Counted from the stretch's first letter, positions 28,086 through 45,370 are shown. The stretch: DNA of 64,000 bases from Nitrospiraceae bacterium (GCA_037442105.1 JBBIQV010000006.1:1-64000); one strand, 5' to 3'. The notes: generated by a model from the letters alone, not told the origin. Numbers and translations are program-made.

Positions 28086-28481
28086 CTATATCCCGGAAGA
28101 TCGTGCCGCTGCCTCTTGCTGAGCGACCCCCTGCCAGGCCTCTCGCAACGTCGTCAGGCAGCGCAGCGGGCCTTCGAGATGCCGGGCGTTGTTTCGCACA
28201 TTGGCCTGGAGCATTTCGGCCATCATGTATTCGTAGAGACGATGTAAGGACATGGCGATCGTTCCGCCTCGCTCAAAATCCAGGACGGTGGACAATTCGC
28301 TGACGATGGCCATGGCTCGGCCCAAGAATCTGGCCTTCTCCTGTACGTTATTGCGCCGCATGCCTTCTCGCGCGAGCTCCAGAGACTGGACGGCTGCATC
28401 GTAAAGCAACACGATCAATTGCGCTCCCGATGACGTCATCACCTGCGTGTGCTGATACTGTCGCACTGCGTCGGGGATCAT
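28086..28481 (-). CDS. fliS: Flagellin chaperone FliS
   Basis: LIVLLYDAA, LDFERGGTIAMSLHRLYEYM, LREAW. Confidence 0.94.
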   Translation of the reverse strand: MIPDAVRQYQHTQVMTSSGAQLIVLLYDAAVQSLELAREGMRRNNVQEKARFLGRAMAIVSELSTVLDFERGGTIAMSLHRLYEYMMAEMLQANVRNNARHLEGPLRCLTTLREAWQGVAQQEAAARSSGI

Positions 28482-29887
28482 GCTCGGTTCCCTTGAATCG
28501 ATTGTGTACGGGCTTGCAGAAAACCCGACTGCGTTTGCAGTTGGCGCAAGAGCCCGTCCAGAGCGGCGTACTGCCTGCGGAGCCGCTCCTGGTATTGACC
28601 GATCGCATCGTCCTTGCGCGCGATGTCGGTCGTCAGGTCCGCGATGCGGTCCGACAGTCCGGATTTACGCAGCGTCAATGGGCCGCTTGCGATATCGTCG
28701 AGCGTGTCGACGGCGTTGTTGATGAGCTGGGCGACGCCGGTCGAAGAGGTCTGATTGATGAACAGCGATTTTACGGCGGCGTAATTGGCGCTCAACGCGG
28801 CGTCCAGCTTGGTGTCTTCTACGGTGACGGTGCCGTCACGTTCGGTCTTGAATCCGATCTCGCCGACACTCGTATACGTTGTAAGCCCGGTGACCGGAGA
28901 GGATAGGGCTTGGCGCAACTGACTGAGGACGGTCCGAACGGTCGGTTCGCTGAAGAAGATCCCGCCTTGCTTCGTGGTGACGTCGTACGTGCTCCGTTCG
29001 TTGATGAACTTCACGATGTCGGTATAGGCGGTGGCAAGCGCCTTGATGTTGGTCTTCACCGCAGCGACGTCGCGCGCAACGTTGACCTGCACCGTAGAAC
29101 TGCCGGTCGTCTTGTTGAGCGTCAAAGTGACGCCGGCGATCGCGTCCGTAATGGTGTTGCTGCTCCGCTGGATGGTCACGGGATTGAGAGCCGGATCGCC
29201 CAGGACGATGATCGCGTCCTGGGCGGCTTGCAACGTGTCGATCCCGCCGGTGCCGCTCGAGTTCAGGAGATCCAACGTCGTGCCGTCGGCGACAATCGTA
29301 ATTCCGTTGCTTCCGCCCGTACTGGCGGCGGTCAAGACCAACCGATACGCGGGCGATGCATCGCTGCCTGTGTTGACGATCGACGCAGTCACCCCCGCGC
29401 CCAAGTCGTTGATGGCGCTTTTCAGATCTTCCAGGGTGCCGGTGCCTCCGAGCGTGACGGTCTGGTTGGAACCGGTTCCAACTTTGAAGGTAAACGTCGC
29501 GGAGGCTCCGCTCACGATGTCCGTGGTGGTGCTCGACACGGCCTTGGCGGATTTGTTTGTGATCTGGTGCGACTGGGCAAGTTGGGTAACCTTGACCGTA
29601 TAACTGCCGGCTGTGGCGGTGGAGGACCCTGTGGCGCTGAGCACCGTGGAATCGCTGATGGAGACGCTGGTCCGGTCGAAGGTGGTTGAAAGCCTCAAGG
29701 CATCGGCGGCGCTTTGCAAGGAAAGGAGTTTCGTGCCGAGCGTGGTAAGGTCGGTAAGTTTCGTATTCAGGTTTGTTTTGGTCTTCTCGAGCCGGTCGAC
29801 CGGCAGGCGCGCCACCTTGACCAGTTGATCGACGATCTGGCCGAAATCCAGCCCGTTGCCGAGCCCCCCGAAACTCACCGTCGGCAT
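28478..29887 (-). CDS. fliD: Flagellar filament cap FliD
   Basis: GGLGNGLD, VTQLAQSH, AAQDA, SSNTITDAIAGVT, QYAALD. Confidence 0.95.
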   Translation of the reverse strand: MPTVSFGGLGNGLDFGQIVDQLVKVARLPVDRLEKTKTNLNTKLTDLTTLGTKLLSLQSAADALRLSTTFDRTSVSISDSTVLSATGSSTATAGSYTVKVTQLAQSHQITNKSAKAVSSTTTDIVSGASATFTFKVGTGSNQTVTLGGTGTLEDLKSAINDLGAGVTASIVNTGSDASPAYRLVLTAASTGGSNGITIVADGTTLDLLNSSGTGGIDTLQAAQDAIIVLGDPALNPVTIQRSSNTITDAIAGVTLTLNKTTGSSTVQVNVARDVAAVKTNIKALATAYTDIVKFINERSTYDVTTKQGGIFFSEPTVRTVLSQLRQALSSPVTGLTTYTSVGEIGFKTERDGTVTVEDTKLDAALSANYAAVKSLFINQTSSTGVAQLINNAVDTLDDIASGPLTLRKSGLSDRIADLTTDIARKDDAIGQYQERLRRQYAALDGLLRQLQTQSGFLQARTQSIQGNRA

Positions 29888-29897
29888 AAAATGCTCT

Positions 29898-30257
29898 CTA
29901 AACCCGCTCTCTCAGCAAGAGCCCCTTCAGCCCGTCCAGTTCCTTCGCCAGCTCGATGAACTCCTGCGGAGGAATCTGTCGAATGACTTCGCCGGATTCC
30001 CCGTTCAGGATTTTGATTACAACCCGATCGAGATCCGGCTCGATCTCGATCTCCAACTGTGCGTCCGTTGCGCGGAACGCCTCACGGACTCTGGCCGCCG
30101 CTTGTTCGAGCTGCTCCCGATCCACGGAAGCCGTCTTGGCTTCGGTGGCTGCCGGATGAGCTGATCCGGATTGTGACATCCCCGTACCCTGCGCCGGTCC
30201 GGCACGGTGGCCCGTCGGGAGCTGAAGGTCCGGTTTTCCTGTCACATCCTGGACCAT
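29898..30257 (-). CDS. flaG: Flagellar protein FlaG
   Basis: VVIKILNGESGEVIRQIPPQE; between fliC and fliD. Confidence 0.9.
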   Translation of the reverse strand: MVQDVTGKPDLQLPTGHRAGPAQGTGMSQSGSAHPAATEAKTASVDREQLEQAAARVREAFRATDAQLEIEIEPDLDRVVIKILNGESGEVIRQIPPQEFIELAKELDGLKGLLLRERV

Positions 30258-30335: not shown

Positions 30336-31163
30336 CTAGCCTCGCAGCAGGGCGAGCGCCTGTTGCGGCAAGGTATTAGCCTGAGCCAGCACGGCGATAC
30401 CGGTCTGGACGAGGATTTGGTTCTTCGTAAAGATCGACGTTTCGTAGGCGATGTCCGCATCGCGGATACGCGATTCGGCTGCCGTGAGCGTCTCACTTGT
30501 CACCTGGAGACTCGCGATCGTCGCCTCAAACCGGTTCTGGATCGACCCATACTCGGCTCGGGCGGTGGCGATGGCGCTGATGGCGCTGTCGATGTTGCCC
30601 AACGCGCTCTGCGCGTTGGCCGCTGTGGACACGTTCACGCTGCTGATGCCCAACGAGGAAATCGTCAGGTCGTTCAGGCTTAAGGTCAGGGTATTGCCTG
30701 TTCCGCTCTTAAACCCGACCTGAACCGTAAAGTTGATCGAGCTCCCGCTCAGCAGAGCCTGACCGTTGAACTCGGTCACTTGCGCGATCCGGTCGATTTC
30801 GGATCGGAGGGCCAGGAACTCCTGGTCGATGTAGGACCGTTCCGTCGCTCCCACCGTACCGCTCGACGATTGCGAGGCGAGTTCACGAAGACGGGCGAGC
30901 AAGGACCCGGCGGTGCTCGCGGCGCCGTCGGCGATCTGCGTCAAACTGATCCCGTCTGACGAGTTCCGAATCGCCTGATTGATGCTGCGGACATGTGCGC
31001 GCAAAGTCTCGGACAAACCGAGACCGGCGGCGTCATCCGCGGCCCGGGTAATCCGGAGACCCGAGGACAGGCGCTCGACGGACCGCGCCAGGCCGAGCGT
31101 GTTGACCGACAGATTGCGCTGTGCGGCGAGCGATGACGGGTTGTTGTTGATGATTAACGACAT
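30336..31163 (-). CDS. fliC: Flagellin (short, 275 aa)
   Basis: RLSSGLRITRAADDAAGL; AAESRIRDADIA; AQAN. Confidence 0.97.
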   Translation of the reverse strand: MSLIINNNPSSLAAQRNLSVNTLGLARSVERLSSGLRITRAADDAAGLGLSETLRAHVRSINQAIRNSSDGISLTQIADGAASTAGSLLARLRELASQSSSGTVGATERSYIDQEFLALRSEIDRIAQVTEFNGQALLSGSSINFTVQVGFKSGTGNTLTLSLNDLTISSLGISSVNVSTAANAQSALGNIDSAISAIATARAEYGSIQNRFEATIASLQVTSETLTAAESRIRDADIAYETSIFTKNQILVQTGIAVLAQANTLPQQALALLRG

Positions 31164-31266
31164 AAACCCTTCCTCCTTGAAAAACCGACCCTACCGTATT
31201 CCTGCGCCTCCGGCGTCCGTGCTAAGGCTGCGATCCGTGCGACCTTTCTTCGCACAGTTGCAACCC

Positions 31267-31293
31267 TTATCGGTCTTCCACATCAAGACTTGA
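31267..31293 (-). promoter_or_regulatory. Sigma-28 promoter of flagellin
   Basis: TCAA-N15-ACCGATAA about 100 nt upstream of fliC. Confidence 0.75.
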
Positions 31294-31358: not shown

Positions 31359-31886
31359 TCAGGAAACCAGGCGCGGCAGCAGCTCGTACTCCAACAGATC
31401 GGCCAGCCGCACCGGATCTCCGGCGTTCCGTGCTTCCATGAGTTCCTGAACCCAGGAAACGAGCGAGTTTCTGTCTGACACGGAACTACCATGCGCGGAT
31501 GCGGTTTCCGTCATTTCGAGATAGTCGGCTAATTTCCCGAGCCAGACGTCCAACGACCCTAGGTTGCCGGTTCCGGTCCTAAAAGAACGGATCAAGACGG
31601 CCCCTTCATCCCGGAGGAAACCGGCATACTTGCGAAGCGATTGTTGCGCCGCCTGCAGGACCTCTCTCACAGCTTGTGAAGTCGCGCGGACGCCACCGGT
31701 CTCCCCGGCTTTCGTTGCGAGCAGGGTCGGTTCGAGGTCCCGGTCGCTGAGGGGACGATCACCTACGGTCAAGCTCGTCACGATGCGTGATTGAGCCTGG
31801 GCACGATCACTCACCTGCGCCAGGACATCGGCTAACAGGACGTCGTCCGCGACTTCCCATTGTTCTTGATCGAGTATCACCTGCAT
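31359..31886 (-). CDS. Hypothetical protein of flagellin-modification region
   Basis: AAGGAG RBS; C-terminal DPVRLADLLEYEL. Confidence 0.75.
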   Translation of the reverse strand: MQVILDQEQWEVADDVLLADVLAQVSDRAQAQSRIVTSLTVGDRPLSDRDLEPTLLATKAGETGGVRATSQAVREVLQAAQQSLRKYAGFLRDEGAVLIRSFRTGTGNLGSLDVWLGKLADYLEMTETASAHGSSVSDRNSLVSWVQELMEARNAGDPVRLADLLEYELLPRLVS

Positions 31887-31933
31887 GGTCGGTCTCCTTT
31901 TCGTCTTTTGGTGCTGCCAAGGATGCTCCTGCG

Positions 31934-33619
31934 TCATCGGTGTCCGATGGCCGGCACCGGGCCGGAAGCGACATCTCGGCCAAAGGGCCGCCGGGAAGGA
32001 TCGCCGGTGGCGTTGTGCAGCCGTGCCTGAATGTCCTTCGCGCGCTTGCGCCAGAGCTCATAGGCATGTGCATGGTGTCGCGCGAGCCGTTCTAAACCTT
32101 GGACATTGTCGTTATGAATGTCGCGAAGGAACGACACCGCCAGCGGAGCGGTCGCCGGCGATTCCATTCCTCTGGTCACCGCCTCCTGCCGGGCTTTTCC
32201 TAACCGTGCCTGGAAGGTCTTCAAGGCTTCGACCGGCACGGGACGGCGGGAAGAGATCCGCACCATTTCATCGGCTTGATCGCAGAGCCTGTCCAGTAGA
32301 GGAAGCAAGCAGCCCAACCGCTCGTCGGCGTCGGACAGGTCGGGCGGAGGACCGATCGGCGCGGAAGTGCGACTCGGCGTGCCCGTGAATGCTTCGTACC
32401 AGTAGCGACGCCAGAAAGAGGCATACCAGGCCGTCGTGGGATGTTCGGCCCCGGCGAGAAGCCTGTACGTAGCCAGACCATCTTCGTCTACGGCCGACTG
32501 ATACAGTCTGGCTCCGCCGGCGGTGACCGGCACAGACGCCTGCTGCAAAACGTGCCGGCATAATGCCGCCATCTCTGCGGTCGCCACGCGATCTTTACAG
32601 CCGTGATGGAAACACACGCGGTCGAAACTGCAGGGAGCGCAGTCAAGCTCAGGCTGGACGACCCAGTGGCCGGGACCGTAGGGGCCGGTTTCTCGAAAAT
32701 CGACATGCCCAACCGATAGATCGACGACCGGTGTGCCGACCGCAACTGCGAGGTGCATGGGGCCTGTGTCATTGGTGAGGAGCATACGACACTCGGCCAG
32801 CAGGCCGACCAACTGGGGCAGCGATGTACGCCCCACCGCCACGCGCAACGGAGCCCGGCCTCCTGCATCCCGATAGGCTCCCTTCACCTGGATGATCGTT
32901 TCTTGTTCAGCCGTTGTACCGACGAGGACGAAGCCGACCGATAATATCTTGCTGAGAAGCGCCATCGTCCGCCCGAAGTATTCCGGACGCCAGGCCTTCA
33001 TCGGGTCGCTGGCTCCGGCTTGAACGGCCACCCACTGCGCGGCGGTCGCCGGCTCTGAGGCAAGGAAACGGCGAGCCCAGTCGGAGGCGCCGGCCGGCAC
33101 CGCGAGTCGAAGCGGAGAAAACGGCCCGACTCCGCTTCCCCCAAGCGCATAGACATCCACGAGGTTGAAGCGATTGAACCGGCGGTAGAGATGCATATCG
33201 GTGAAGTAGGCCATCCAGGGATTCTCGACAACCGGCCCGCCGTCCCAGGCGCTGCGCACCCCGCGAATGTCGGAGGCGCCGACGTAGCCGGCGAGCAGTC
33301 CGCTGCATTGATTGAAGGTGAGATTGACGATGCGGTCATACCCTGCCTCGGCAAGAGGCTTCGCCCACGCCGCGACGTCTTGATACAACGCGACCACGTC
33401 TTTTGCTTTGGCTCGGCTGTCATCGATCAGGGCATGAAAGTCATACGCCGCAATGTGTCGCAGCCCCGGCAGCAATTCTGCGACCGGAGCAAACCGCCGA
33501 TCCACAACGAGATCGATTCCGGCGCCGGGCCATTCGTGCTGGAGTCTGGCCAGAAGGGGTCCCATCTGCACGAGGTCGCCCATGCGCGTGATGTTGAGGA
33601 TCAGGACCTGCTTGCTCAC
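31934..33619 (-). CDS. Glycosyltransferase family 9 (heptosyltransferase-like) with C-terminal extension
   Basis: TRMGDLVQ, QAGAS..KAW, TNDTGPMHLAVAVG. Confidence 0.9.
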   Translation of the reverse strand: MSKQVLILNITRMGDLVQMGPLLARLQHEWPGAGIDLVVDRRFAPVAELLPGLRHIAAYDFHALIDDSRAKAKDVVALYQDVAAWAKPLAEAGYDRIVNLTFNQCSGLLAGYVGASDIRGVRSAWDGGPVVENPWMAYFTDMHLYRRFNRFNLVDVYALGGSGVGPFSPLRLAVPAGASDWARRFLASEPATAAQWVAVQAGASDPMKAWRPEYFGRTMALLSKILSVGFVLVGTTAEQETIIQVKGAYRDAGGRAPLRVAVGRTSLPQLVGLLAECRMLLTNDTGPMHLAVAVGTPVVDLSVGHVDFRETGPYGPGHWVVQPELDCAPCSFDRVCFHHGCKDRVATAEMAALCRHVLQQASVPVTAGGARLYQSAVDEDGLATYRLLAGAEHPTTAWYASFWRRYWYEAFTGTPSRTSAPIGPPPDLSDADERLGCLLPLLDRLCDQADEMVRISSRRPVPVEALKTFQARLGKARQEAVTRGMESPATAPLAVSFLRDIHNDNVQGLERLARHHAHAYELWRKRAKDIQARLHNATGDPSRRPFGRDVASGPVPAIGHR

Positions 33620-35433
33620 AACATGTCTCTCGTTTCAGAGCGATAGGCGTCGAGCATGAGAATCAGGAGGTCCTCGCGCGCCAGCGTCGCCGTGGGTCCT
33701 CGCGAGCGGATTGTCTCGGCAAGATCCTTCAGCTCAACGCGCCGGCCGGAGGGAAAGCGCCGCAGCAAGGGAACCAGTTCAGGCGCCTTCTCGCATCGGT
33801 CGGTCAACCGCGCAGCGTCGCGTTCACCCCGCAGCAGGGATCCGATACGATCCGGTTGACTCACGCCGATATGGGCCAACAAATCGCGCAGGCGATGGAC
33901 ATAGGTATGGTGATCGAGAACACGCCGGCGCGCGGCGGCGACGAAGGCCGTCCTGCCGGCGGAGTCGGCCAACCATGTCCGGATGAGCGGCTGCAACTCA
34001 TCCGCCGAACGAAAGGCGACCACTTCTTTCTCGGAAAACAACTCGGGCATCAATGTCCGATGATCGACCAATTGGAACGCTCCGCAGGCAGCCAGCTCAA
34101 ACGTGCGTGGATTGACGAAGTCGGCGTGAGGATCGAGCCCCGCGCCCGACGAGGAGTGCAGGTTCAGATTGACGGTCGTCGCGCTAAATACTTTCATGCA
34201 GGTCTCGGTATCGATCCGGGCGCCGTTCCGTTGAAGGACAGGAAGGAGGTCCGTTGCTCCGTCCCATTCGTTTCCCCAAAGTTTGAATGACCATTCGCTC
34301 GTGATCAGACGAGGCAGCAGCGCCCGGCGATTGGCATAGCCGGCCCCGACGAATGAGATGTCGGCGCCATACTCCTCCCGCTCCTCGGCTGTCAGAGACA
34401 TTGGACGATGCACTGCCGGATCCGCCGCCATCGGCAGATACGCGACCTGTTTGGCTCCTGCACGCCGAAAGGCGTCGAGACAATCTGCTTGCTGAATCAC
34501 AAACCAGTAGTCATATCCGGTCGCGAGTTGCTGCCAGTAGGTCAGGTGGCGGAAGTTCTCCACGAACCACATGGCGGTCGGAAACTTTTTCTTTCTGAGA
34601 TGCTCGAGGACCGGGACGGTCAAGGGCGCTTGGGCCAACGCCAGCACCAGGTCCGGGGGATCTTCCGCCAGGCGGACCAGCGTGGTGAGACCGAGCACTT
34701 CGGCGAACTTGCTCTGCACGGTGAGGCGGTGGCGGGTATCGCGGATGTTCCCGAACGATTCGTAACTGGTCTTATGGACGCTCTGATCGAGCCAACTCAC
34801 CCGATGCCCCAGTGTTTCGAGAGCCGAGACCACATACCCGGCGGTCGGCAGTGAGCCTCCATAAATGGGGCCGACGACCGCCACGTGAAGCTGTCCGCCC
34901 GACCGGTTTGCCAGCAGGCGTCGCAAAGCGACCTCCAGTTCTCCGTGGGCTTTGCCGTGCAATCCGGCGGCAGGCCCGTAGGACAAGAAGCGGAGAGGGC
35001 GGCCCAACGCGATCAATTGCTCGGCCATATCGTGCGGGGTTCCCCAGATCCAATCGACTTCTCCGAGCCAATTTCCAAGCATCCTGCCATTGCAGGCATC
35101 CCGCAGCACGTTCTGGTCCGGAACTATGACGGCGAGCGATGACCCGGACGGTGCAAGCCGTCGCAGGGCTTCCACATGGTAGAGCAGTCCCACTCCGAGC
35201 ACGACGCCGGTTTCCCCCTCCTTCCACGTGGACTGCTGCGATTCGGCCCAGGCATGAGCTTCTTCCTGCGGATTATAGGCACTGTGCACCCAACGACCGG
35301 CCACGGTTGCCGAGGGCATCCCATTGCGGGCTCGGACGATCGTGAGCACACCCCCCTCGGCCTCGCGCAGGGCGTGCGCCAAGGCTGAGTGTTTCTCCGC
35401 AATCCAATGAAGATTGTCGTCCAGCACACTCAT
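33616..35433 (-). CDS. Maf-N-like + CgeB-type glycosyltransferase fusion
   Basis: N-terminal HSAYNPQEEA, GVGLLYH; C-terminal ISFVGAGYANR, NPRTFELAACGAFQL, HTYVHR; ATGA overlap. Confidence 0.8.
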   Translation of the reverse strand: MSVLDDNLHWIAEKHSALAHALREAEGGVLTIVRARNGMPSATVAGRWVHSAYNPQEEAHAWAESQQSTWKEGETGVVLGVGLLYHVEALRRLAPSGSSLAVIVPDQNVLRDACNGRMLGNWLGEVDWIWGTPHDMAEQLIALGRPLRFLSYGPAAGLHGKAHGELEVALRRLLANRSGGQLHVAVVGPIYGGSLPTAGYVVSALETLGHRVSWLDQSVHKTSYESFGNIRDTRHRLTVQSKFAEVLGLTTLVRLAEDPPDLVLALAQAPLTVPVLEHLRKKKFPTAMWFVENFRHLTYWQQLATGYDYWFVIQQADCLDAFRRAGAKQVAYLPMAADPAVHRPMSLTAEEREEYGADISFVGAGYANRRALLPRLITSEWSFKLWGNEWDGATDLLPVLQRNGARIDTETCMKVFSATTVNLNLHSSSGAGLDPHADFVNPRTFELAACGAFQLVDHRTLMPELFSEKEVVAFRSADELQPLIRTWLADSAGRTAFVAAARRRVLDHHTYVHRLRDLLAHIGVSQPDRIGSLLRGERDAARLTDRCEKAPELVPLLRRFPSGRRVELKDLAETIRSRGPTATLAREDLLILMLDAYRSETRDML

Positions 35434-36647
35434 CGGCAGAACTCCGCGAGGTTCTCTTGATGGATAGTCCGCCACACCTGTTCCCGCTGGAGCGGCGGCG
35501 AAGAAGAGGTGCCAGCCTGAGTGAAAAATGCACCCCAGCGGTCAACGTGGCTTTCCCACAATGACCAGCCTTCGAGCACTCGCCGGCACGACCCGGTCTG
35601 GATTAATTCGATGCTTTCTTCCACCGGCCACGTATCCGGCCGTGGCGGATGACCGTCACCACTGACGTCCTCTCGCTGCCACACCCAATGCCCTTCTCCA
35701 TAAGGACCGGTTTCATGGACTCGGGCACGGGCGAAATAGAACCCGATGGCGCGGGCTCCCAGTGCAACGGCGAGATGCAGCGGGCCCGTATCAGGCCCGG
35801 CGACCCATTGGCATCGGCTGAGGAGCAGCGCCAACCGTGGAAGGTCTGTCCGACCGGTCGCATCCCACACCCGTCCCAACAACAGCGGAGGAAGGTCGTG
35901 TTGGATCACATGCGCTCGCTCCCGTTCCTGTCCGCTTCCGATCAACACCACGTGCCCGGTGGGGCTGCGGGTGAGGAACAGGGTGATCCAGCGATGCCAG
36001 ACTTCCGCCGGTATTTGTCGAGCCACATCGCCTGCGCCGACGATAACGGCCACCCACAGGCCGCTCCCCTGCCCGATGCCGTTGAGGTTCCGAGGCAGGT
36101 CCGTTCGGGGAGCAGCTAGACGGACCGACACCCCTGGCGGTTCAATGCCGCAGAGACCGCAAAACGCATCGGCCAGATGAACGCGGTTGGGACTTCGTCG
36201 CCGTACAATTTGTTGCAGGTAGGCGGCCCAGGGCGTGAGCTCATCATCAAGAGGACCATGGCGTTTGGGCCCCCGTACCTGTTTGGCCAGCAGTGCGCCG
36301 GCGAGGAGCGCGCGAGGGTGTTGATTCAGCACGTACCCGATCTCATAGAATTCCGGAGAGAGTTCCTTGATATGGCGAGCTACTTCGTCCAGCAGGTCGC
36401 GGCTGAGGTTTTCCGCGGAGGAATCCGCCCACGCGTGCCATCTGCTGCCGTCCCACCCCAGGACCCGATCGACCCCCGGAAGGAAGCTCGCCAAACCGAC
36501 CAAAGCTGAAGGGCAAAGCAGATCGAGCGGCCGGTTGTGGTATCGGGCCTTGAGCCCGACGATGGCCGGCAGGCTTTGGACAAGATCGCCTAGGCGAGCA
36601 AGTTGGATCAGAAGCCCACGGGGTGTCGCTCGTCCCTCAGACAACAT
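35430..36647 (-). CDS. Glycosyltransferase family 9
   Basis: ARLGDLVQS, GRTDL, DTGPLHLAVALG, ETGPYG. Confidence 0.88.
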   Translation of the reverse strand: MLSEGRATPRGLLIQLARLGDLVQSLPAIVGLKARYHNRPLDLLCPSALVGLASFLPGVDRVLGWDGSRWHAWADSSAENLSRDLLDEVARHIKELSPEFYEIGYVLNQHPRALLAGALLAKQVRGPKRHGPLDDELTPWAAYLQQIVRRRSPNRVHLADAFCGLCGIEPPGVSVRLAAPRTDLPRNLNGIGQGSGLWVAVIVGAGDVARQIPAEVWHRWITLFLTRSPTGHVVLIGSGQERERAHVIQHDLPPLLLGRVWDATGRTDLPRLALLLSRCQWVAGPDTGPLHLAVALGARAIGFYFARARVHETGPYGEGHWVWQREDVSGDGHPPRPDTWPVEESIELIQTGSCRRVLEGWSLWESHVDRWGAFFTQAGTSSSPPLQREQVWRTIHQENLAEFCR

Positions 36648-39600
36648 GGGAATGTGTCAGCGAGGCCTCCTTGTCTGCCAAGGCCTGTTCCAGCTCCGCC
36701 AGCCCGTCGAATGTCGGATTCAGTATCTTGATCGTGTCATGCTCCTTCCGTGCTGCGGCAGGGTGGTCGAGACGGAGGAAGACTCCTGCCAGCGCGAACC
36801 GGATCCCGATGTCGCCGGGGTTTCTCACCAGGTACTCGGTTAAACGTCGTTGCAGCTCATCCCACCACTGTAAAGCTGTCCCGGCCCGCAAGAGCCATTG
36901 GATCGCTTCGACATCGTCCGGGTTATCCTTCAATAATCCGGAGAACCGCTCCCAGGCCGGTTCGGCCTGGCCCAACCCCATCAAGGCCATGCCGGCCCCG
37001 AGACGGGCTTTCCTCACATCGGCACCAAACTGGCCGGCTCGCTCGAATGCGATCGCCGCTTCTCCACAGGCTTGCCGCTGCATCGCAATGATGCCGCGCA
37101 GGAACCACCCTTCCCCGTGCTGAGCGTTGCGGGACAGCAGTATGTTTACGTGAGAGTCGGCCTGCTCGAACTGCCCCTGATCGAGAACGAACCGCGCGAG
37201 AGCGATCCGCGCATCCGGGTCCTCCTCGATGCTTAAGATCCGTTCCCAGAAAGCCATGGCCAGCTCCGGAACGCCTGCGCGGCGGCAGACCAACGCGCCC
37301 CAGCGAAGAACCCAGGCATCGCTCGGCCAGTTCTTCGCCTGCGCGAGAAGATGCTTCACCGTCGCGAAATCCTGACGCTGCGCGGCCTGCTGCGCCTCGG
37401 CCACGAGACGCCATTGCTCACGGTCAGGCTCGGTCAACCGGCGTACATCGTTGTGGAGCATCCCGTTCTCTGTACGGACGTGACATGCGTAGCCATCGGC
37501 AAAATAGAGGGCATCTTCGTCGGTGATCCACCATTTGTGAGTCCATCGCTGAAGAAACCGTTGTGCATTCTCCTGGTCGTGAGCTTTTCTCCCCTGCGTC
37601 TGACTCTCCAGGTGATAGACGACGCTCGTGGGTTGGTACACGATTTTCCAGCCCTCTTCCCCCACTTTCAGACACAGGTCCACATCTTCGAAACCATTGC
37701 GATAGCCCTCGTCGAAGCCCCCGACCTTCTCGAATACTTCGCGGCGTATCAGCATGCAGGCGCCTGTGACACATTGAAACTCGCGCCGGTAGTTCACAGC
37801 CGGCATGTCCGCACGGGCCATCCGATAGAGGTGATATGGGGTAAAGAAAATTCGGGAGAAGCCGACGCCGGCGTGCTGGATCGTCCCGTCTTCATAGAGC
37901 AATTTGCTCCCGACGACCGCCACGTCCGGATGTTGCTCCACCTCCTCTACCATCGCCTGGAGCCATCCATCCAAGGGAATCGTGTCGTTATTCAGAAAGA
38001 CAAGATACCGGCCTTTGGCCGCCTTCGCCCCTTGATTGCAGCCCTTGGCAAATCCCAGGTTCTCGCTGTTCCTGATGATTTGCACATCGCCGCCGAGTTG
38101 GCTCAAGAACTCCGCGGTGCCGTCGGAAGAGGCGTTATCGACGATGATGACTTCGTACTCCACGCCGTGGGTCACTTCAGCCAGCTTGACGAGACATTGT
38201 TTCGTGAGATCGAGCTTATTGAAGACGGGAATAATGATGGAGGCCACGATCTGTTTGCCCGCTCCCGCCTCCTGTCCGACAGGTTGCGCCTGTAGATGTG
38301 CGGCCGCCGCCTCACAGACGCCCCATGCATAGGCCGCCTGTAGCAAAGCGTTGTAGAGCGGATAAAGAATGTTTCTTGTGTAGAAGTGGTCGTACCCCTG
38401 GTTGTTCAACCGGACAACTCCGAGCCTGCCGAGATCCGGCTTCTGAAGTTCCGATATCGCCTCCAGCAGTCCGCGGACATGTTCCTCTGTGTACCGTCCA
38501 CGGTTGTGCAGGATGTCCTGCAGGCCCAGGACCATGCCGTCGAGTTCCGGATGTTTGCGAGCGAGGATGACGGCCATATGCCCGGCCTTTCGCTGCCGGT
38601 GCACGAACCCCTCCACGGTGATTTCATGGTGATGGCGCGTGACGGCCATGGGGTTGTAATGGATCTGCATCCCCTGTCGCGCCAGGCGATAACCCAGTTC
38701 GGTGTCGTCGTACGCCGGATAGGTGAAGTCCTGATCGAAAAGCGTGGTCTGTTCGAGCAAGAGACTGCGTTTGAGCGAGATGTTGCTGGTGTAGAACAGG
38801 CGAAAATCCGCTTTCCCCTCCCGCACGACATGGAACGCAAACTGTTGCCCCCCTTCCGGCGAGACGATGAAATGCATGAACGGCGTGATCCGAATCTCAG
38901 GCGACCAGTCGATGAAGCCCAGCATCGCGTCCAGCTCGGAGGAATGCTGCCGGTGAAACTTCAGATGCGCTTCCAGGAAAGCCGGTTCCGGAATCATATC
39001 GTCGCCCGTGATGAGGACGATCTCCCCGCTTGCTTCACGGATCGCCAGATTGCGCGCCGCGTTCGCTCCCTGGTGTGGCTGGCTCAACGCTTTGAGCGTG
39101 AAGGATGCTTTGAACTGTTTCAGCATCGCCATGGTGTCGTCGGAGGACCCGTCGTCCACCACGATGACTTCGAACTGTTCCGGCGGAATCGTCTGGGACT
39201 CAAGGGCCAACAGAGTCTTTCGAAGAATGGCGCGGCGGTTGTAAGCCGGGATCACGACACTCAGCGGCAAGGCGGACACGGCAGCCTTCGCCGAGGGTTG
39301 TGGGTGAGCCACCACCGGCGTGCGAGGCGCCTGCGACACAAGCCGGCGCAATTGCGCGAGCGGAGCGTCGAGCCGGTAGGCCCACCGCAATAGTTGCTCA
39401 TAATGTTGTTGGGCGAACGCCTCTACCGGTTGGGAATGGTCGCCGGCCTGCCGGCGCTGAAGGATGGCGAATCCTTCCTCCAGGAATCGCTTGCCTGCCA
39501 CCATATCTTCCCTGCTCATGTTGGGACTGTGCATCGGCACTTGATGGCCACCGTAATCCTTCCATTGAAGCGACTCGATCCAGCCTTGGCGGATACCCTC

Positions 39601-40779
39601 TTCATAGAGCGGCGTACCGGGGTACGGGGTGATGATGGTCACGCCGATGGTGTCCGGCTTATAGCGTTGAATCAGATCATAGGTCGCGACGATGGATTCG
39701 CGGGTTTCCTGCGGGAGCCCGACGATCAGGAGAAAATGGAGGCGGATGCCCAGTTGCCTGGTCTTCTCGCGGAGGTGAGCCAGTTTCGGGACCGTGAGGC
39801 CCTTTTTCCCTTCACGACGGTGCATGACCTGTTCGTCCCCGGTTTCGACTCCAACGAGAATGCCCACGCACCCGGCCGCCTTCATCCTTTCGAGCACGGC
39901 ATCGCCCAAGCAATCGACCCTCGTTTCGCAGACCCATTCGAGCTGCCATCGAGCTTCGACGATGAGATCGCATAGACGCACGATACGGTCCTGATTCAAG
40001 GTAAACGTGGCGTCACGGAAGTAGATCTTCCGAGTTCCCAATTCTTCGACGATCTGTTTCAGTTCCGCTGCAATCCGCTCGGGCGACTGAGGCCGCCACT
40101 TGACTCCTTCGACCAGCGGATAAGGACAATAGTACCCGCAGGGATACGGACAGCCGCGGCTCGTCTGGAGAGTGGCGACCGGCCCGCCGAGCAACGGATA
40201 CCGGTACCGTTCGTTCGGAAGCAGGTCGCGCGCGGGCAACGGAAGTTGGTTCAGATCATGGACCGCCGTCCCCTCCTCGAAGCGATATTGGGAACCGGAC
40301 TCACTTGCCTCGATCCAGGCCGTCCCTTGCCGGCTCCGTCCATGGGCCATGTCGATGATGCTCAGGTCGGCTTCCCCATGAATGGCGAGATCGATACAAC
40401 TCTTCCGCAACAGCGGTTCGAGAACAGCCTGCGCGCGGATCAGGGTCTTTGCAAAGATACGAGCTTGGGGATGCCGCGACCGGAGCTGCGCCAGAAACTC
40501 AACGTCATGTTCGAGGGACGGCAAGGAGACGGTTCCGACCAGCAGATCCCAGGAACGGCCGGCCAAGCGATTGCAGACGCCTTGCGCGTCCAGCCCCAGA
40601 GGATCCGCATCGATCAGCTCGACCTCCTCTCCCGCTTGGCGCAAGGTGGCCGCCATGATCGCCAGATCGAGCGGCGGAAGGACCATCCCGTCATGCCCGT
40701 CGAATCCTAATCCGCCGGCCATGCTGCGGCTGACCGGTCTCGTGTGAAGTGAAGGGCTGTTGATCAGCGCGATACGCAT
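36637..40779 (-). CDS. B12-binding radical SAM + GT2 + GT2 + TPR fusion protein
   Basis: PPLDLAIMAA..., SRGCPYPCGYYC, FRDATF, GVETG, TPYPGT; SVVIPAYN..VDDGS; SIIIPVFN..VDNAS..FLNND; TPR-like C-terminus. Confidence 0.9.
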   Translation of the reverse strand: MRIALINSPSLHTRPVSRSMAGGLGFDGHDGMVLPPLDLAIMAATLRQAGEEVELIDADPLGLDAQGVCNRLAGRSWDLLVGTVSLPSLEHDVEFLAQLRSRHPQARIFAKTLIRAQAVLEPLLRKSCIDLAIHGEADLSIIDMAHGRSRQGTAWIEASESGSQYRFEEGTAVHDLNQLPLPARDLLPNERYRYPLLGGPVATLQTSRGCPYPCGYYCPYPLVEGVKWRPQSPERIAAELKQIVEELGTRKIYFRDATFTLNQDRIVRLCDLIVEARWQLEWVCETRVDCLGDAVLERMKAAGCVGILVGVETGDEQVMHRREGKKGLTVPKLAHLREKTRQLGIRLHFLLIVGLPQETRESIVATYDLIQRYKPDTIGVTIITPYPGTPLYEEGIRQGWIESLQWKDYGGHQVPMHSPNMSREDMVAGKRFLEEGFAILQRRQAGDHSQPVEAFAQQHYEQLLRWAYRLDAPLAQLRRLVSQAPRTPVVAHPQPSAKAAVSALPLSVVIPAYNRRAILRKTLLALESQTIPPEQFEVIVVDDGSSDDTMAMLKQFKASFTLKALSQPHQGANAARNLAIREASGEIVLITGDDMIPEPAFLEAHLKFHRQHSSELDAMLGFIDWSPEIRITPFMHFIVSPEGGQQFAFHVVREGKADFRLFYTSNISLKRSLLLEQTTLFDQDFTYPAYDDTELGYRLARQGMQIHYNPMAVTRHHHEITVEGFVHRQRKAGHMAVILARKHPELDGMVLGLQDILHNRGRYTEEHVRGLLEAISELQKPDLGRLGVVRLNNQGYDHFYTRNILYPLYNALLQAAYAWGVCEAAAAHLQAQPVGQEAGAGKQIVASIIIPVFNKLDLTKQCLVKLAEVTHGVEYEVIIVDNASSDGTAEFLSQLGGDVQIIRNSENLGFAKGCNQGAKAAKGRYLVFLNNDTIPLDGWLQAMVEEVEQHPDVAVVGSKLLYEDGTIQHAGVGFSRIFFTPYHLYRMARADMPAVNYRREFQCVTGACMLIRREVFEKVGGFDEGYRNGFEDVDLCLKVGEEGWKIVYQPTSVVYHLESQTQGRKAHDQENAQRFLQRWTHKWWITDEDALYFADGYACHVRTENGMLHNDVRRLTEPDREQWRLVAEAQQAAQRQDFATVKHLLAQAKNWPSDAWVLRWGALVCRRAGVPELAMAFWERILSIEEDPDARIALARFVLDQGQFEQADSHVNILLSRNAQHGEGWFLRGIIAMQRQACGEAAIAFERAGQFGADVRKARLGAGMALMGLGQAEPAWERFSGLLKDNPDDVEAIQWLLRAGTALQWWDELQRRLTEYLVRNPGDIGIRFALAGVFLRLDHPAAARKEHDTIKILNPTFDGLAELEQALADKEASLTHSHVV

Positions 40780-42104
40780 ATCGTCTCCCGGGATGTGGTC
40801 GGCAACTGACCAAGGGCAAAGAGCCGTTCTTCCGTCCCCCCTTCGTGTGCGAGGGCGATCACCCGATTCAACCAGACGTAATCCACGTCCTTGACTTTGG
40901 CCTCGGTGGGTGTCCGGCAGGAGCCGTTGTACGGGTCCACGATCGTGAGTCCTTTCTTGTCGAGCTCTTCCGCCATCCCGCTGCCCGGAGTCGGTGTGAA
41001 GAAACTTGTGCTGAGGTGATCAGGTTTAATCTTCCAGACCATCCGGACCGTGTCCATGACTTCTTCTCGCGTTTCTGTCGGTGCGCCGAACATGATGTTG
41101 GCCCAAATCTTGACGCCATACTCTTTGCAGATCTCCGCAGCCTTGAGGTTTTCCTCGACCGTGGTCTCTTTTTCGAACAGATCCAAGATGCGTTGGCTCC
41201 CGCTCTCGAAGCCGATCATAGCCCAGGCCAGCCCGCACTCCGCCATTTGCTTGACGACATCGGGATAGCGACAGATCAGATCGGCGCGCATTTGGCAAAT
41301 GTACGGTTCGGTGAACCCGGCCGCCTTATATTGGGCACAGAACTCCCTCGTCCATCGGTGGTTTATAAAGAACAGGTCGTCGTGCGCCATCCAACTTCGG
41401 AAACGGAACCGGTCCTTCAAGGACCGCAGTTCGCCGATCACGTTCCGCTGGCTGCGCATCTTGACGCGATTGCCGAAGACCGCGCGTTCGGCCGGCTGGC
41501 AGAAGTTGCATTTGAAGGGACAGCCGCGGCCGGCGTTCGTCGTAACGAACGGCGTGGGCAGGCTCGGAACCATCGGGGTCGCCAGTTCCCCGCTCATGTC
41601 GAACAGATCGCGATCTACCCAGGGGATATCGTCCAGTCCCGGCCCTTTACCGATGATGATCCGCTCCGCCTGCTCCCCCGCCGCAAGTTCGTCCAGTAAT
41701 GTGACGAAGCTGATTTCTCCTTCTTGGGTGATGATGTGATCGATGAGGCGGTTGGAGGCAACCTGCTGAGTGTGGATAGTGACGTGGACACCGCCGAAGA
41801 TGATCGTGGCGTCTTCCTGTTCCTCTTTCACGATCCGGATGGCGCGCACGGCATCGGGGTAATGAAGGCTCCAGGAGGTCAGCGCCCACACCTTGTTACG
41901 GCGGCGCCGGACTTCCTCCCGGAAATGGCTCCAGTCGAGAAGCGTCCGCAGATCGATCAAGTCGACGGTATGGCCATGCGCCTTCGCTGAGGCGCTCAAC
42001 GAAGCGAGGCCGTGGTCGATGAAGTTTGCCTCGATCGTGCGTTTCTTACGGAAACTGTCGAACCCGGGCAAGGCGATGCCGGGAAAGATCATGGTCACGT
42101 GCAT
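40764..42104 (-). CDS. Cobalamin-dependent (class B) radical SAM protein
   Basis: GGVHVT, EGE, GRGCPFKCNFC, GFESGSQRIL, TPTPGS. Confidence 0.9.
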   Translation of the reverse strand: MHVTMIFPGIALPGFDSFRKKRTIEANFIDHGLASLSASAKAHGHTVDLIDLRTLLDWSHFREEVRRRRNKVWALTSWSLHYPDAVRAIRIVKEEQEDATIIFGGVHVTIHTQQVASNRLIDHIITQEGEISFVTLLDELAAGEQAERIIIGKGPGLDDIPWVDRDLFDMSGELATPMVPSLPTPFVTTNAGRGCPFKCNFCQPAERAVFGNRVKMRSQRNVIGELRSLKDRFRFRSWMAHDDLFFINHRWTREFCAQYKAAGFTEPYICQMRADLICRYPDVVKQMAECGLAWAMIGFESGSQRILDLFEKETTVEENLKAAEICKEYGVKIWANIMFGAPTETREEVMDTVRMVWKIKPDHLSTSFFTPTPGSGMAEELDKKGLTIVDPYNGSCRTPTEAKVKDVDYVWLNRVIALAHEGGTEERLFALGQLPTTSRETICVSR

Positions 42105-43150
42105 GCGAGGGCTCCTGCCCGCTGCTGAATGGCGTGAAGCAGTGCGGGAAGCTGACCGCTGGCGTGGTACCACGCCAGAGTCGCTGCCAACCCACGCGCC
42201 AGCGACCAGCGGCCATAGGCACCGATTTCCGCCCTCAGCTTGGCATTGTCGTAGGATCGGTGGCATTGCTCCGGGGTTCCCATCAAGGCATAGGCAAAGT
42301 CCGGAGCGATCGGGAGAGGGCGAGCTGCATCCGGTTGCGAGGGCGACTGCAAGAGCTCGAAGCAGTCCGTCAACTGCGTCAGACGCGCCAGGGTTTCCAG
42401 ATACTGGCCGATGGTGACCGATTCCTCCCCTGTGATGTTGTAGAGGCCGGTCAGTCGGCTTTCGACCACGCGCACGAGTCCTTCAACCAAGTCGTCGATG
42501 TACAAAGGTTGAAACCGGCGGTGGCAAAGTTGCGACCAGATCCGGCGAATAGGCGTCGCTCCCAGCAACGCCATGAGCGAGGGATGAAGAAACCAGGCGC
42601 TGCCTGGCCCGTAAATATTGCCGATGCGCAGGATCAGAGCGAGGTGTCCGGACGCTGCGCCCCACGCCGCCGTCAGCTCCTCTGCCTTGACTTTAGATCG
42701 GCCGTAATCCGACACGGGCCGGCAGGGCATCTCTTCGCGGAGCGGAATCTCCTGGTCCGCTCCCAACCCTTGCGCCTCGATGCTGCTCGCACACACGAAA
42801 TAAGGAGCCTTGAACGCGTCGGCCCATTGCAAGGCCCGCTTGGTGCCGCCGACATTGGTCGCCCAAACGGAAGGCCCGCTCACGGAGACATCGGCGGCGA
42901 GGTGAAGGAACACATCGGCCTGTTCGGGAGACGGGAGCAAGGGCTTCTGATCCTGGGCAGCCAGATCGCAGGCGATGATCCGGGCGCCTCGTGTTGCCAG
43001 TTCGGCCGCGCGGGGTGTTGAAACGTGACGCGTCAGAATCGTTACGCGGGCTCCCATACTCAAAAGCTTGGCGCTGACGCGCGAGCCGATAAAGCCGGCC
43101 CCGCCCGTCACGATGACATGACTGTTGTGGATAGGCTTGCGTCGCTCCAT
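42095..43150 (-). CDS. NAD-dependent epimerase/dehydratase
   Basis: VTGGAGFIG, HLAA, YGRSK (YxxxK), NIYGPG; start at MERRK with GGAGG. Confidence 0.9.
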   Translation of the reverse strand: MERRKPIHNSHVIVTGGAGFIGSRVSAKLLSMGARVTILTRHVSTPRAAELATRGARIIACDLAAQDQKPLLPSPEQADVFLHLAADVSVSGPSVWATNVGGTKRALQWADAFKAPYFVCASSIEAQGLGADQEIPLREEMPCRPVSDYGRSKVKAEELTAAWGAASGHLALILRIGNIYGPGSAWFLHPSLMALLGATPIRRIWSQLCHRRFQPLYIDDLVEGLVRVVESRLTGLYNITGEESVTIGQYLETLARLTQLTDCFELLQSPSQPDAARPLPIAPDFAYALMGTPEQCHRSYDNAKLRAEIGAYGRWSLARGLAATLAWYHASGQLPALLHAIQQRAGALACT

Positions 43151-43180
43151 CCGCTTCCCTCCCGGTCGAGAACAGGACTT

Positions 43181-43197
43181 AGCAAGGGATACGCCAA
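43181..43197 (-). promoter_or_regulatory. Putative sigma-54 promoter of the glycosylation operon
   Basis: TTGGCGTATCCCTTGCT (GG-N10-GC), 30 nt upstream of the ATG. Confidence 0.6.
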
Positions 43198-43344: not shown

Positions 43345-44070
43345 TTATCCGTGGGGCCGGTCCCCCGCACTCTGCCTTTGCAGGACGCAATATTCGAGAG
43401 CCTTCTGCACAGTCCCACCCCACCCGCGATACTCGATATACTCCAGGCCAGTGAACCGGAATTCGACGCCAACCAGATAGTTCGGAGCCTGTTCCTGGAG
43501 ATTCTTCACAACCCCGCTGAGGTTCGTCACATGACCCAGACCCGGCAGTTCGAACTCCATCTTCACTTCCAGGCCCGGACGGATACCGGGAACCAACTGG
43601 GACAGCACAACGCTGCACCCGCCGATGCTGAGGTCCTGCAGAAGTCCACCGAGAAGGTCGTTGCTGGACGGCCGGTCTGTTTGCGCCGCACTGTTGACCT
43701 GTAGCAGCAACATGGGTTCGTTGCTGGGCACACGGACATGTTTGCGAAGGTGAACTTCCTCGACCGTCTTGGGAAACGACAGGAACAAGAGGGGCACCGG
43801 AGTCACGAGAACCTCCCGCACCTCGCTGCGATAGCCGATCAATTTTCCTGCATAGACATAGCTGACTAAGCATTGAGTGCCCGCTGTGCACCCGATTTCA
43901 TGCCGTATCTGGGACGGCCACTCGCAGATCAGCCAGGCATTCTCTTTCCAGCCTAACAAGGTCGATCCGCATTGCACCTTGCCCTGCCCGGTCTGAATGG
44001 TGAGCTTCAACGGGAGCCCGACCGACAGGAACGATGCGGAGGAGGAACTCGGAGGGGCATCGTGACTCAT
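43345..44070 (-). CDS. PilZ-domain flagellar brake-like (YcgR/PilZN-PilZ) protein
   Basis: RKHVR and DLSIGG. Confidence 0.87.
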   Translation of the reverse strand: MSHDAPPSSSSASFLSVGLPLKLTIQTGQGKVQCGSTLLGWKENAWLICEWPSQIRHEIGCTAGTQCLVSYVYAGKLIGYRSEVREVLVTPVPLLFLSFPKTVEEVHLRKHVRVPSNEPMLLLQVNSAAQTDRPSSNDLLGGLLQDLSIGGCSVVLSQLVPGIRPGLEVKMEFELPGLGHVTNLSGVVKNLQEQAPNYLVGVEFRFTGLEYIEYRGWGGTVQKALEYCVLQRQSAGDRPHG

Positions 44071-45305
44071 ATCAGCTCCTTATCGAGGTAGACGCTGGGG
44101 TTGATGCCGAGCGTCAGAGGATTGAGTGCCGACTGGATGCTCCGATGCGGCCTGCGGACCTGGGTTGACAGGTCCAGTTCCTCCGGTTTGGAGAGAAGAG
44201 TGTTGCCGGCGCTTTTGACGATGATAACGTGCGGTTCGAGGGGCTTATCATGGTTCAACTTGCGCACAATCGCTGTTTCGCCTGTGTTGAGACCGACGCA
44301 GGAACCGACAGGATAGACCCCGACGATCTGGATGAATCGCTGCACTAAACGACTGTCTACGTGACCGCGTTGCCCGAGCTGATAGAGAAACTGCAAGGCT
44401 TCATGGGGCGGCTTGGCCTTGTGATAACAGCGGTCGCTCGTGACCGCATCGTAAATATCCACGACCGCCGCAATGAGCCCGTATTCGCTCAGATCGCTTT
44501 TCTTGCGCCGATGGGGATAGCCCGTACCGTCCACCCGTTCATGATGTTCGAGCGTCGGTTTGAAGAACGGTTCGTCGAGGCCGGTCGTGGTGGACAAGAT
44601 CTCCACGCCGTGCATGACGTGCTGTTGCATGATTTCAAACTCTTTGGCTTCGAACCGCCCCGGCTTATTCAAAATCTCCAGAGGAATTTTGGTCTTGCCG
44701 ATATCATGCAGCAATGTCCCCACTCCGAGCTGGTGCAGGCCGCCGCGATCGAAACCAAGATTCCGGCCGAGCGCCAGAGCGAGGAGCGAGGTATTGACCG
44801 AGTGGTAGAAGGTGTACTCATCGAACCGTTTGACGCGTGAGAGGCTCGTAAGGGCGTCGGGATTGCGCAAGACACTGTCCGCCATACCAGCGACAACCGA
44901 GTTGACCGCCTCCATGTTGATGTCGCGTCCCATGCGTACATCCAACATGGCATCTTCGATGATATGTTTAGCGGCCTTATAGACCTGCCGGGCCGTCGTC
45001 AATTCTTCTTCGAACGACGTGGCGGGAAACTCCCGGCTCGGTTCCGGTTCAGGCGGCTGGTCAATTACAGGCTGATCGGAAATGGCCTCCGGCGGAGGGA
45101 CCCATGCTGTGTCCGCCCCCGAATGTTCTTCGGGCCCGTCGTCTACCTCGAGGATTTTGACGCCGCAGGCACGGAGAGCGTCGATCTGCCGATGTTCCGT
45201 GATCAACATGCGGTGGCGTAGAAATGGTGTCTCCACCCATGACTTATCCATCTGCATGATTCGCATCCCGACACGGAGATCTTCGATGGAGATTCGTTTT
45301 CGCAT
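44067..45305 (-). CDS. HD-GYP c-di-GMP phosphodiesterase with DUF3391-like N-terminus
   Basis: DEYTFYHS, LLHDIGK, HHERVDGTGYP, VDIYDA, DRCY. Confidence 0.93.
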   Translation of the reverse strand: MRKRISIEDLRVGMRIMQMDKSWVETPFLRHRMLITEHRQIDALRACGVKILEVDDGPEEHSGADTAWVPPPEAISDQPVIDQPPEPEPSREFPATSFEEELTTARQVYKAAKHIIEDAMLDVRMGRDINMEAVNSVVAGMADSVLRNPDALTSLSRVKRFDEYTFYHSVNTSLLALALGRNLGFDRGGLHQLGVGTLLHDIGKTKIPLEILNKPGRFEAKEFEIMQQHVMHGVEILSTTTGLDEPFFKPTLEHHERVDGTGYPHRRKKSDLSEYGLIAAVVDIYDAVTSDRCYHKAKPPHEALQFLYQLGQRGHVDSRLVQRFIQIVGVYPVGSCVGLNTGETAIVRKLNHDKPLEPHVIIVKSAGNTLLSKPEELDLSTQVRRPHRSIQSALNPLTLGINPSVYLDKELI

Positions 45306-45370
45306 GGTCGAATACCGTCTGAAACCGGAGCCATATTGCTGCATCAGGCAACAACAGGCTCTGACGAGTT

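Follow-up and report, generated by a model that had tools for sequence, protein, structure and literature searches.

A glycosyltransferase island beside a short flagellin gene in Nitrospiraceae and its predicted AprD4-like radical sugar cassette

What do seven genes crowded directly upstream of a flagellin gene build, and on which acceptor? The question is raised by a 64,000-nucleotide stretch of DNA from a Nitrospiraceae bacterium (GCA_037442105.1 JBBIQV010000006.1:1-64000; "the window"), in which genes for glycosyltransferases and radical S-adenosylmethionine (SAM) enzymes stand beside fliC. An earlier reading, made from the sequence alone, took this island for an assembly line that glycosylates flagellin and methylates the glycan by cobalamin-dependent radical chemistry. 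The reading preferred here, to which we give a joint probability of about 0.5, is that flagellin is O-glycosylated in the cytoplasm and that its glycan is capped by a GT2 enzyme with a sugar made by radical dehydration, NADPH-dependent reduction and, probably, cobalamin-dependent methylation. Its parts are not equally firm: comparison of genomes makes flagellin quite a probable acceptor, and the dehydration-reduction chemistry, predicted from sequences and structural models, is somewhat favoured.

The glycosyltransferase core and the short flagellin

The source genome (2.8 Mb, 86.7% complete, the assembly to which all genome-wide searches below refer) has its nearest named relatives in Nitrospiraceae. 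Family-model scans confirmed seven open reading frames, all on the minus strand and of the families first stated: six overlapping genes for glycan and radical enzymes, and a seventh that had been called hypothetical. Counted from the gene for the short-chain dehydrogenase/reductase (SDR), the overlaps between neighbouring enzyme genes are 10, 16, 11, 4 and 4 nucleotides long. As the sequence-only reading had held, no pse, leg or neu gene lies inside the island. Its span of 31359-43197 stands for the genes and is corrected at the edges: the SDR most likely starts at 43150 and the seventh gene at 31886, and 43197 is the edge of a sigma-54-type site, not the SDR start. GC content shows no anomaly across the island. 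The features are as follows.

43180..43197, minus strand: sigma-54-type (-24/-12) promoter-like site ahead of the island (pattern match)
42095..43150, minus strand: extended SDR, 351 residues (PF01370, E 4e-31)
40764..42104, minus strand: B12-binding radical SAM enzyme, 446 residues (PF02310 and PF04055)
36637..40779, minus strand: radical SAM-GT2-GT2-tetratricopeptide repeat (TPR) fusion, 1380 residues (family models)
39454..40779, minus strand: AprD4-like radical SAM domain, residues 1-442 of the fusion (NF033070, PDB 6fd2, AlphaFold2 model)
38542..39264, minus strand: first GT2 domain of the fusion, cassette-specific (family models)
36637..38247, minus strand: second GT2 domain and TPR repeats, the conserved C-terminal end of a variable fusion (family models)
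35430..36647, minus strand: divergent GT9, 405 residues, core (PF01075, E 4e-13)
33616..35433, minus strand: Maf N-domain (Maf-N), CgeB-type GT4-like GT-B domain and helical tail, 605 residues, core (DUF3880/Glyco_trans_1_2, hhalign, AlphaFold2)
31934..33619, minus strand: long-tailed GT9, 561 residues, core (PF01075, E 2e-15)
31359..31886, minus strand: GlfM-like helper, the gene first called hypothetical, 175 residues, core (motif and position)
31267..31293, minus strand: sigma-28-type promoter-like site of fliC (relaxed pattern)
30336..31163, minus strand: short flagellin FliC, 275 residues (Pfam)

In 80 loci of relatives, which were chosen by their CgeB-type gene, the order GT9, CgeB-type enzyme, long GT9, helper and short fliC is fixed. 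The core reaches short fliC in 69 of them and the remaining 11 stop at contig ends, which bears out the linkage to fliC across relatives. The C-terminal GT2-TPR part usually precedes the core (it is absent from L039), and the second GT2 is 59–91% identical wherever the fusion is present. Cultured Nitrospira moscoviensis also carries the core (locus L065).

Presence and absence follow the same line. Within the family, close orthologs of the Maf-N/CgeB protein are found in 37 of 53 genomes, and so is short fliC; 36 genomes have both, on one contig and 2.4–2.9 kb apart in 35, and the two mismatches are contig ends. The ortholog was found neither in the family genomes without detectable fliC (0/9) nor in those with a long flagellin of 618–643 residues (0/6). 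In a sister family, four of nine genomes checked have both genes and five have neither. The long-flagellin genomes carry other sugar genes directly upstream of flagellin, NeuB-like in five of the six, and Maf proteins with PF01973 and TPR repeats occupy the slot in all three that were scanned (3/3). The glycosyltransferase genes are thus conserved beside flagellin and tied to its presence.

Some variants deserve record. Among the relatives with 618–643-residue flagellins (L207-L212), Maf was confirmed in L207, L208 and L210; the first two carry methyltransferase-Maf-TPR fusions, and fliC of L210 is accompanied by genes for NeuB, an epimerase of the NeuC type, a B12 radical SAM enzyme and a sialidase-like BNR-repeat protein. 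Two loci from a different family of the class (L199:3918-6638, L200:1-4209) have a longer CgeB-type transferase next to FliT; in L200 fliS-fliD are neighbours as well, and no GT9 occurs within the stretches examined. Two genomes (G129:C26, G109:C26) have a broken Maf-N/CgeB gene, through decay or assembly error.

The composition of the core also points to flagellin. Pfam does not call Maf_flag10_N (PF20157) on the CgeB-type protein, yet its residues 1–168 match the N-domain of a relative's Maf protein (hhalign probability 94%, E 1.1e-7), so that the Maf N-domain previously claimed for this enzyme is borne out by hhalign. In its AlphaFold2 model (predicted local distance difference test, pLDDT, 89), residues 178–529 match GT4 enzymes (best structural Z score 25.8), and model and family scan agree on a GT4-like GT-B catalytic domain, not the Maf GT-A domain (PF01973). 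The latter was found nowhere in the genome, and a NeuB-family search there returned only a DAHP synthase. The profile of the protein gave chance matches only against solved structures; the fold search was dominated by the GT-B domain and barely probed Maf-N. Both GT9 proteins have the GT9 fold motifs (GD base, DTGPxH): the 405-residue protein keeps LGDL and DTGPLH, and the long-tailed one keeps invariant G14 and D15, NDTGPMH and a match to PDB 3tov (E 8e-17). The C-terminal extension of about 200 residues in the latter has no match in the relative's Maf protein. Against heptosyltransferase models with cut-offs of 135–185 bits both reach at most 62 bits, and heptose as their donor is a guess. 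The GT2-TPR part found only generic GT2 matches among solved structures, and no specific flagellin transferase.

The helper carries F102-R103 and D163xxE166. Its family is wide (270 matches of about 200 residues each) and has the consensus FRxG...DxVLxADxLEYE, with D163 invariant in 65 aligned rows. GlfM is described as an adaptor that lets Maf-2 glycosylate flagellin, is encoded next to the transferase and conserves F24, R25, D77 and E80 (bioRxiv 10.1101/2023.12.03.569772). The helper has the same four kinds of residue and lies just downstream of a transferase, so by motif and position it is likely an adaptor between glycosyltransferase and flagellin. Pfam and NCBIfam gave no match for it, nor did the GT9 tail or the relative's Maf-TPR protein; no short homologs were found among proteins of 30–92 residues, and PDB returned only generic helical bundles, mostly designed proteins. 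An atlas search gave a lead to DUF8042 (score 0.88). When the complex of the long-tailed GT9 (residues 1–545), helper and FliC was predicted, FliC scored 0.01 against a mark of 0.32, a value that speaks neither for nor against binding.

Promoter-like sites agree with a flagellar role. With a sigma-54 pattern that was widened to TGG[CT] after the window's own site had been seen, sites were found in 8 of 9 loci with the window's cassette and in 1 of 15 without it (chance would give about 0.3 in all 24), and in 13/13 cassette loci of a second, partly overlapping set. The same motif precedes the fliL and flgF operons in this genome. A relaxed sigma-28 pattern matched 48 of 73 fliC upstream regions, and fliA is encoded in the genome; a scan for sigma-70 sites and terminators gave matches at or under chance level. 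FliC is the sole flagellin found. Its leader (window 31164-31293) has an AGGAGGA ribosome site and a GCACGGA motif, present in 6 of 8 leaders compared, which resembles CsrA-binding sites.

Synteny, co-occurrence, replacement by Maf, the Maf N-domain, the helper and the sigma-54 sites together give strong comparative support to the glycosylation of flagellin; the radical chemistry proposed with it holds by half, as shown below.

The radical cassette and its exchangeable slot

The fused radical domain is the key to the chemistry. Its best family is NF033070 (AprD4), with 279.5 bits, and its best solved relative is AprD4 itself (PDB 6fd2, E 1.5e-68). The AlphaFold2 model (pLDDT 94) superposes on 6fd2 with Z 45.4 and 2.0 Å over 442 residues at 33% identity; the next best structure has Z 28.7, and the cobalamin enzymes MgmA, CysS, OxsB and TsrM, at 24.7–28.7, are among the top eight rows. 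CX3CX3C is present in all 120 listed homologs, with C210, C214 and C218 invariant in 45 aligned rows, and the N-terminal AGGLG...PPLDL motifs are common to the domain and AprD4. AprD4 is described as having this non-canonical CX3CX3C motif and as dehydrating paromamine at C3′, with the product passed to the NADPH reductase AprD3 (PMC13707489, PMC5461906). A 2026 review counts it with the enzymes that lack cobalamin binding (PMC12931638), and in 2017 it was called the only known radical SAM dehydratase (PMC5461906). Because of this closeness to an enzyme working without cobalamin, radical dehydration or deoxygenation is likelier than methylation for the fused domain. It has the motifs and the two-domain fold of AprD4 but misses the NF033070 cut-off of 500 bits, and is filed as AprD4-like, not AprD4. 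The domain is predicted, from sequence and model, to be a cobalamin-independent sugar diol dehydratase, so that of the two enzymes once assigned to cobalamin-dependent methylation, only the 446-residue one would keep that assignment.

The SDR, with GxxGxxG, Ser-Ser and YxxxK intact, had been labelled an epimerase and looks instead like an NADPH reductase. Among its homologs, the residue following the second β-strand is Arg instead of Asp in 118 of 120, and 119 of 120 have YxxSK. Arg at this place points to NADP(H) and to a reductase. Having the catalytic residues together with this basic residue, the SDR is likely an NADPH-dependent 4-keto-sugar reductase, for which we infer an AprD3-like role.

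The 446-residue enzyme has a B12-binding domain (PF02310, 49.7 bits against a cut-off of 32.1) and a radical SAM domain (PF04055) with CX3CX2C, the combination that marks class B, together with a GGxHxT motif; it lies below every NCBIfam function cut-off. By analogy with the commonest reaction of the class, we infer that it C-methylates. GenK and GenD1 are reported as class B enzymes that C-methylate sugars (PMC5461906). A search of 401 genomes of the class found close homologs in 19. The gene is split in one genome and short in another (L236, L235), by decay or assembly error, and the source genome has about ten B12-type radical SAM genes at scattered positions.

These genes keep company with each other. 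Of the 17 other family members with a close homolog of the B12 enzyme, 13 were examined; all of them have the SDR, the B12 enzyme and the fusion together (13/13), and 12 reach fliC. The first GT2 finds close matches only in loci with an AprD4-like domain, and a GT2 39–41% identical to it adjoins stand-alone AprD4-like genes in L112 and L191. The AprD4-like homolog family numbers 341 matches, and its gene is present in 5 of 301 genomes of the phylum, one of them, G235, outside the family. Among 80 AprD4-like loci from a metagenome scan three were close and the rest distant; plasmid searches with the AprD4-like domain or the helper gave no match.

The cassette is however not the heart of the assembly line, as it had been taken to be, but one of many interchangeable decorations. 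Everything upstream of the core and the GT2-TPR part varies, and clustering gave dozens of gene families. The window's cassette is found in 8 of the 80 loci; in seven the fusion is preceded by the SDR and B12 enzyme, and in the eighth the contig begins within the fusion. Among the named loci, the genomes in which the radical cassette was seen are all uncultured. Compared with Pfam, 40 cassette representatives include DegT aminotransferases, GDP-mannose dehydratase, RmlC, NeuB, thiamine diphosphate (TPP) enzymes and transketolase pairs, and further phosphoenolpyruvate (PEP) mutase, class I methyltransferases, transferases and other B12 radical SAM enzymes. In a tree of the core enzyme, built from 91 loci and the window with five apparent duplicates left out and with some loci chosen for having the cassette, the cassette is spread over separate places, and twice it falls within groups of other cassette types, which suggests that it has been exchanged between loci. 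The alternatives (for example L101:2978-4360; L034:1488-3326; L062:634-2774; L048:1293-2327) include a PEP mutase-cytidylyltransferase fusion (phosphonate), TPP enzymes, transketolase pairs (presumably for branched sugars) and NeuB, often accompany B12 radical SAM enzymes and contain fusion proteins of up to 2477 residues.

The proposed pathway, its alternatives and the surroundings of the island

On the preferred reading, the sigma-54 operon would be expressed with the basal-body genes, before sigma-28-dependent fliC. The Maf-N/GT-B enzyme and the two GT9s, aided by the GlfM-like protein, would dock on flagellin and assemble a core glycan at its Ser/Thr residues, with ADP-heptose among the possible donors, and the conserved GT2-TPR part would lengthen this glycan. 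Working without cobalamin, the AprD4-like domain would abstract hydrogen and dehydrate a vicinal diol to a keto-deoxy sugar; its substrate is most likely a nucleotide sugar, as the surface-glycan context and the extended type of the SDR favour. The SDR would then use NADPH to reduce this ketone, the part that AprD3 plays for AprD4, the B12 enzyme would add a further change, most likely a C-methyl group, and the fused first GT2 would transfer the finished deoxy sugar as a cap.

Several points weigh against this pathway. The fused domain stays far below the AprD4 cut-off and shares only a third of its residues (33%) with AprD4; the likeness of the SDR to AprD3, and that of the helper to GlfM, is one of motif and context, and the spacing from FR to D is 60 residues in the helper against 52 in GlfM. 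The Ser/Thr-rich flagellin core of the sequence-only reading is real (Ser and Thr make up 33% of residues 142–187 and 22% overall), but since two distant short flagellins reach 33% and 36%, we rejected this richness as evidence of glycosylation, as not distinctive among short flagellins. Linkage and co-loss could come from block deletion of the flagellar region, and kin genomes are not independent; block loss could explain the aflagellate cases, but hardly those in which a textbook Maf island has taken the place of the core. There are also cases away from flagellin. G235 (L191:5780-14261) has, after a UbiA gene, an unfused B12 radical SAM enzyme, Wzx, SDR, AprD4-like protein, two GT2s and a GT9; no flagellin was found in this genome, and the radical module there, beside a Wzx flippase, is probably the same sugar module working on an envelope glycan. 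In G004 a homolog of the B12 enzyme lies in a Wzm/Wzt locus without an AprD4-like gene. These contexts argue that the module serves surface-glycan sugars in general and is here inserted into a flagellar slot. Finally, the stand-alone AprD4-like gene of L112 has no SDR within the examined stretch, and cobS was not found in the source genome.

The alternative that survives best, unlikely as it is, keeps the flagellin island and changes the reaction: the AprD4-like domain would catalyse oxidation, epimerisation, deamination or ring contraction, and the SDR would act on a different intermediate. The missed cut-off, the low identity and the size of a homolog family that is unstudied leave room for it, and radical sugar lyases are described as switching between elimination and dehydrogenation with substrate geometry (PMC11434129). 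The fold match to AprD4 far above all others (Z 45.4 vs 28.7), the cysteine and N-terminal motifs held in common with it, and the reductase-type SDR travelling along argue for dehydration.

It is improbable that the genes modify lipopolysaccharide (LPS) or another envelope polysaccharide, their flagellar location being incidental. GT9 is the family of the LPS heptosyltransferases, hldE and a gmhA-like gene in the genome make heptose donors possible, and elsewhere the radical module is met in a Wzx locus and the B12 enzyme in a Wzm/Wzt locus. However, this genome has a separate set of LPS-type heptosyltransferases, three over cut-off beside lpxK on contig C17, and the island GT9s lack both that position and scores near the WaaC/WaaF/WaaQ equivalog cut-offs. 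A Pfam scan of the island genes found no flippase, ligase or exporter; the Maf-N and GlfM-like parts, the absence of orthologs from genomes without fliC and from long-flagellin genomes, and the Maf islands in the same slot of the latter also speak for flagellin.

A little more improbable still is that both radical enzymes are cobalamin methylases of the flagellin glycan. The B12 domain of the 446-residue enzyme, the precedent of GenK and GenD1 (PMC5461906) and a weak B12-binding match in the fused domain (17.3 bits, cut-off 32.1) would fit, but the fused domain is nearest to AprD4, which is listed as not binding cobalamin (PMC12931638), and cobalamin-binding structures lie at least 16 Z units lower. 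Slightly less probable again is another flagellar acceptor, such as a cap, hook or junction protein or a sheath glycan: co-occurrence with fliC is co-occurrence with flaG-fliD-fliS too, and the conserved ends of FliC leave only about 45 residues between them, while Maf-N, TPR and GlfM-type parts are directed to flagellin in characterised systems (bioRxiv 10.1101/2023.12.03.569772) and the island type switches with flagellin length. Tailoring of hopanoid side chains, to which sub-threshold HpnJ, HpnA and HpnB matches point and for which the fused domain is the best HpnJ match of the genome, is very improbable, since that match reaches 191 bits against the TIGR03471 cut-off of 577.6 and is outscored by the AprD4 model, no hopanoid gene was found among the neighbours scanned, and relatives swap the cassette for unrelated sugar pathways.

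More tentatively, and with doubt, the case may be generalised: a flagellin machine of Maf-N/GT4, GT9 and GlfM-like parts would be joined by a mobile module of AprD4-type enzyme, reductase and cobalamin methylase to make a deoxy, C-methyl-branched sugar, placed on flagellin and on flippase-exported polysaccharides in several phyla. AprD4 is known from aminoglycoside antibiotics. The locus provides an AprD4-like homolog together with its likely reductase, a transferase and a candidate acceptor, so that the reaction of the family in surface glycans becomes testable. The deoxy sugars known from surface glycans come from NAD- or pyridoxamine phosphate (PMP)-dependent dehydratases, and a radical route to them would, if true, be new chemistry. 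The core, if true, would add a flagellin glycosylation route that is neither Maf nor FlmG in a widespread group of nitrifiers.

The surroundings of the island are flagellar and chemotactic:

28086..30257, minus strand: flaG-fliD-fliS, downstream of fliC (Pfam)
43345..45305, minus strand: HD-GYP and PilZ/YcgR genes, the upstream edge of the exchangeable slot (Pfam)

A sigma-28-type site at 45397 precedes these HD-GYP and PilZ genes flanking the island (window 44067-45397), and a second HD-GYP gene with a hybrid kinase is next, on the plus strand. Window 1552-22304 is a large chemotaxis block with two CheA, five methyl-accepting chemotaxis protein (MCP)-domain genes, CheW copies, CheB, CheR, CheZ, two receiver proteins and motAB. 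Open reading frames at 27754-28083 (directly after fliS), 54052-55518 and 55531-56511 have no Pfam match at the thresholds used; the position after fliS is often occupied by fliT.

Relation to known systems

With the Maf and Maf-2-GlfM systems of Shewanella, Kurthia, Geobacillus, Aeromonas and Campylobacter the island shares its place upstream of flagellin and the Maf N-domain, and with Maf-2-GlfM also a small helper with FR and DxxE encoded right after a glycosyltransferase; in relatives of the window, Maf islands hold the very same slot. It differs from those systems in that neither PF01973 nor a NeuB pathway was found in its genome; its catalytic domains comprise one GT4-like GT-B, two GT9 and two GT2, and at the N-terminus its helper is longer by about 70 residues. 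GmaR and CD0240 are GT2-TPR enzymes of flagellin islands.

Like AprD4/AprD3 of apramycin formation, the island has CX3CX3C, the two-domain fold, the N-terminal motifs and a neighbouring NADPH-type SDR. Unlike AprD4, its domain is fused to GT2-GT2-TPR and stands in a surface-glycan island rather than in an antibiotic cluster, so paromamine cannot be assumed as its substrate. The 446-residue enzyme resembles GenK/GenD1 as a B12-binding radical SAM enzyme in a sugar pathway, and differs in lying under the function cut-offs and in having its close homologs in surface-glycan loci. FliB, described as methylating flagellin lysines by Fe-S/SAM chemistry (PMC8598068), belongs to a different family and acts on protein, whereas in the island the radical enzymes go together with glycosyltransferases.

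That flagellin islands can vary in their decoration is already well known. The Geobacillus flagellin glycosylation island is a multi-glycosyltransferase island of this kind (PMC5109656), and in the enterobacterial flag-2 VR1 region GT9 genes are predicted, by prediction only, beside flagellin in 70 strains (PMC6993521); a word search of the main text of both papers found no mention of radical SAM. Literature searches, with subscription papers mostly outside their scope, likewise returned no radical SAM pathway for flagellin glycans and nothing on Nitrospira flagellin glycans. The island resembles these systems in combining a conserved transferase core with exchangeable sugar and methyltransferase genes. 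Although it is neither a Maf system nor, by cut-off, an AprD4 system, it likely works like each.

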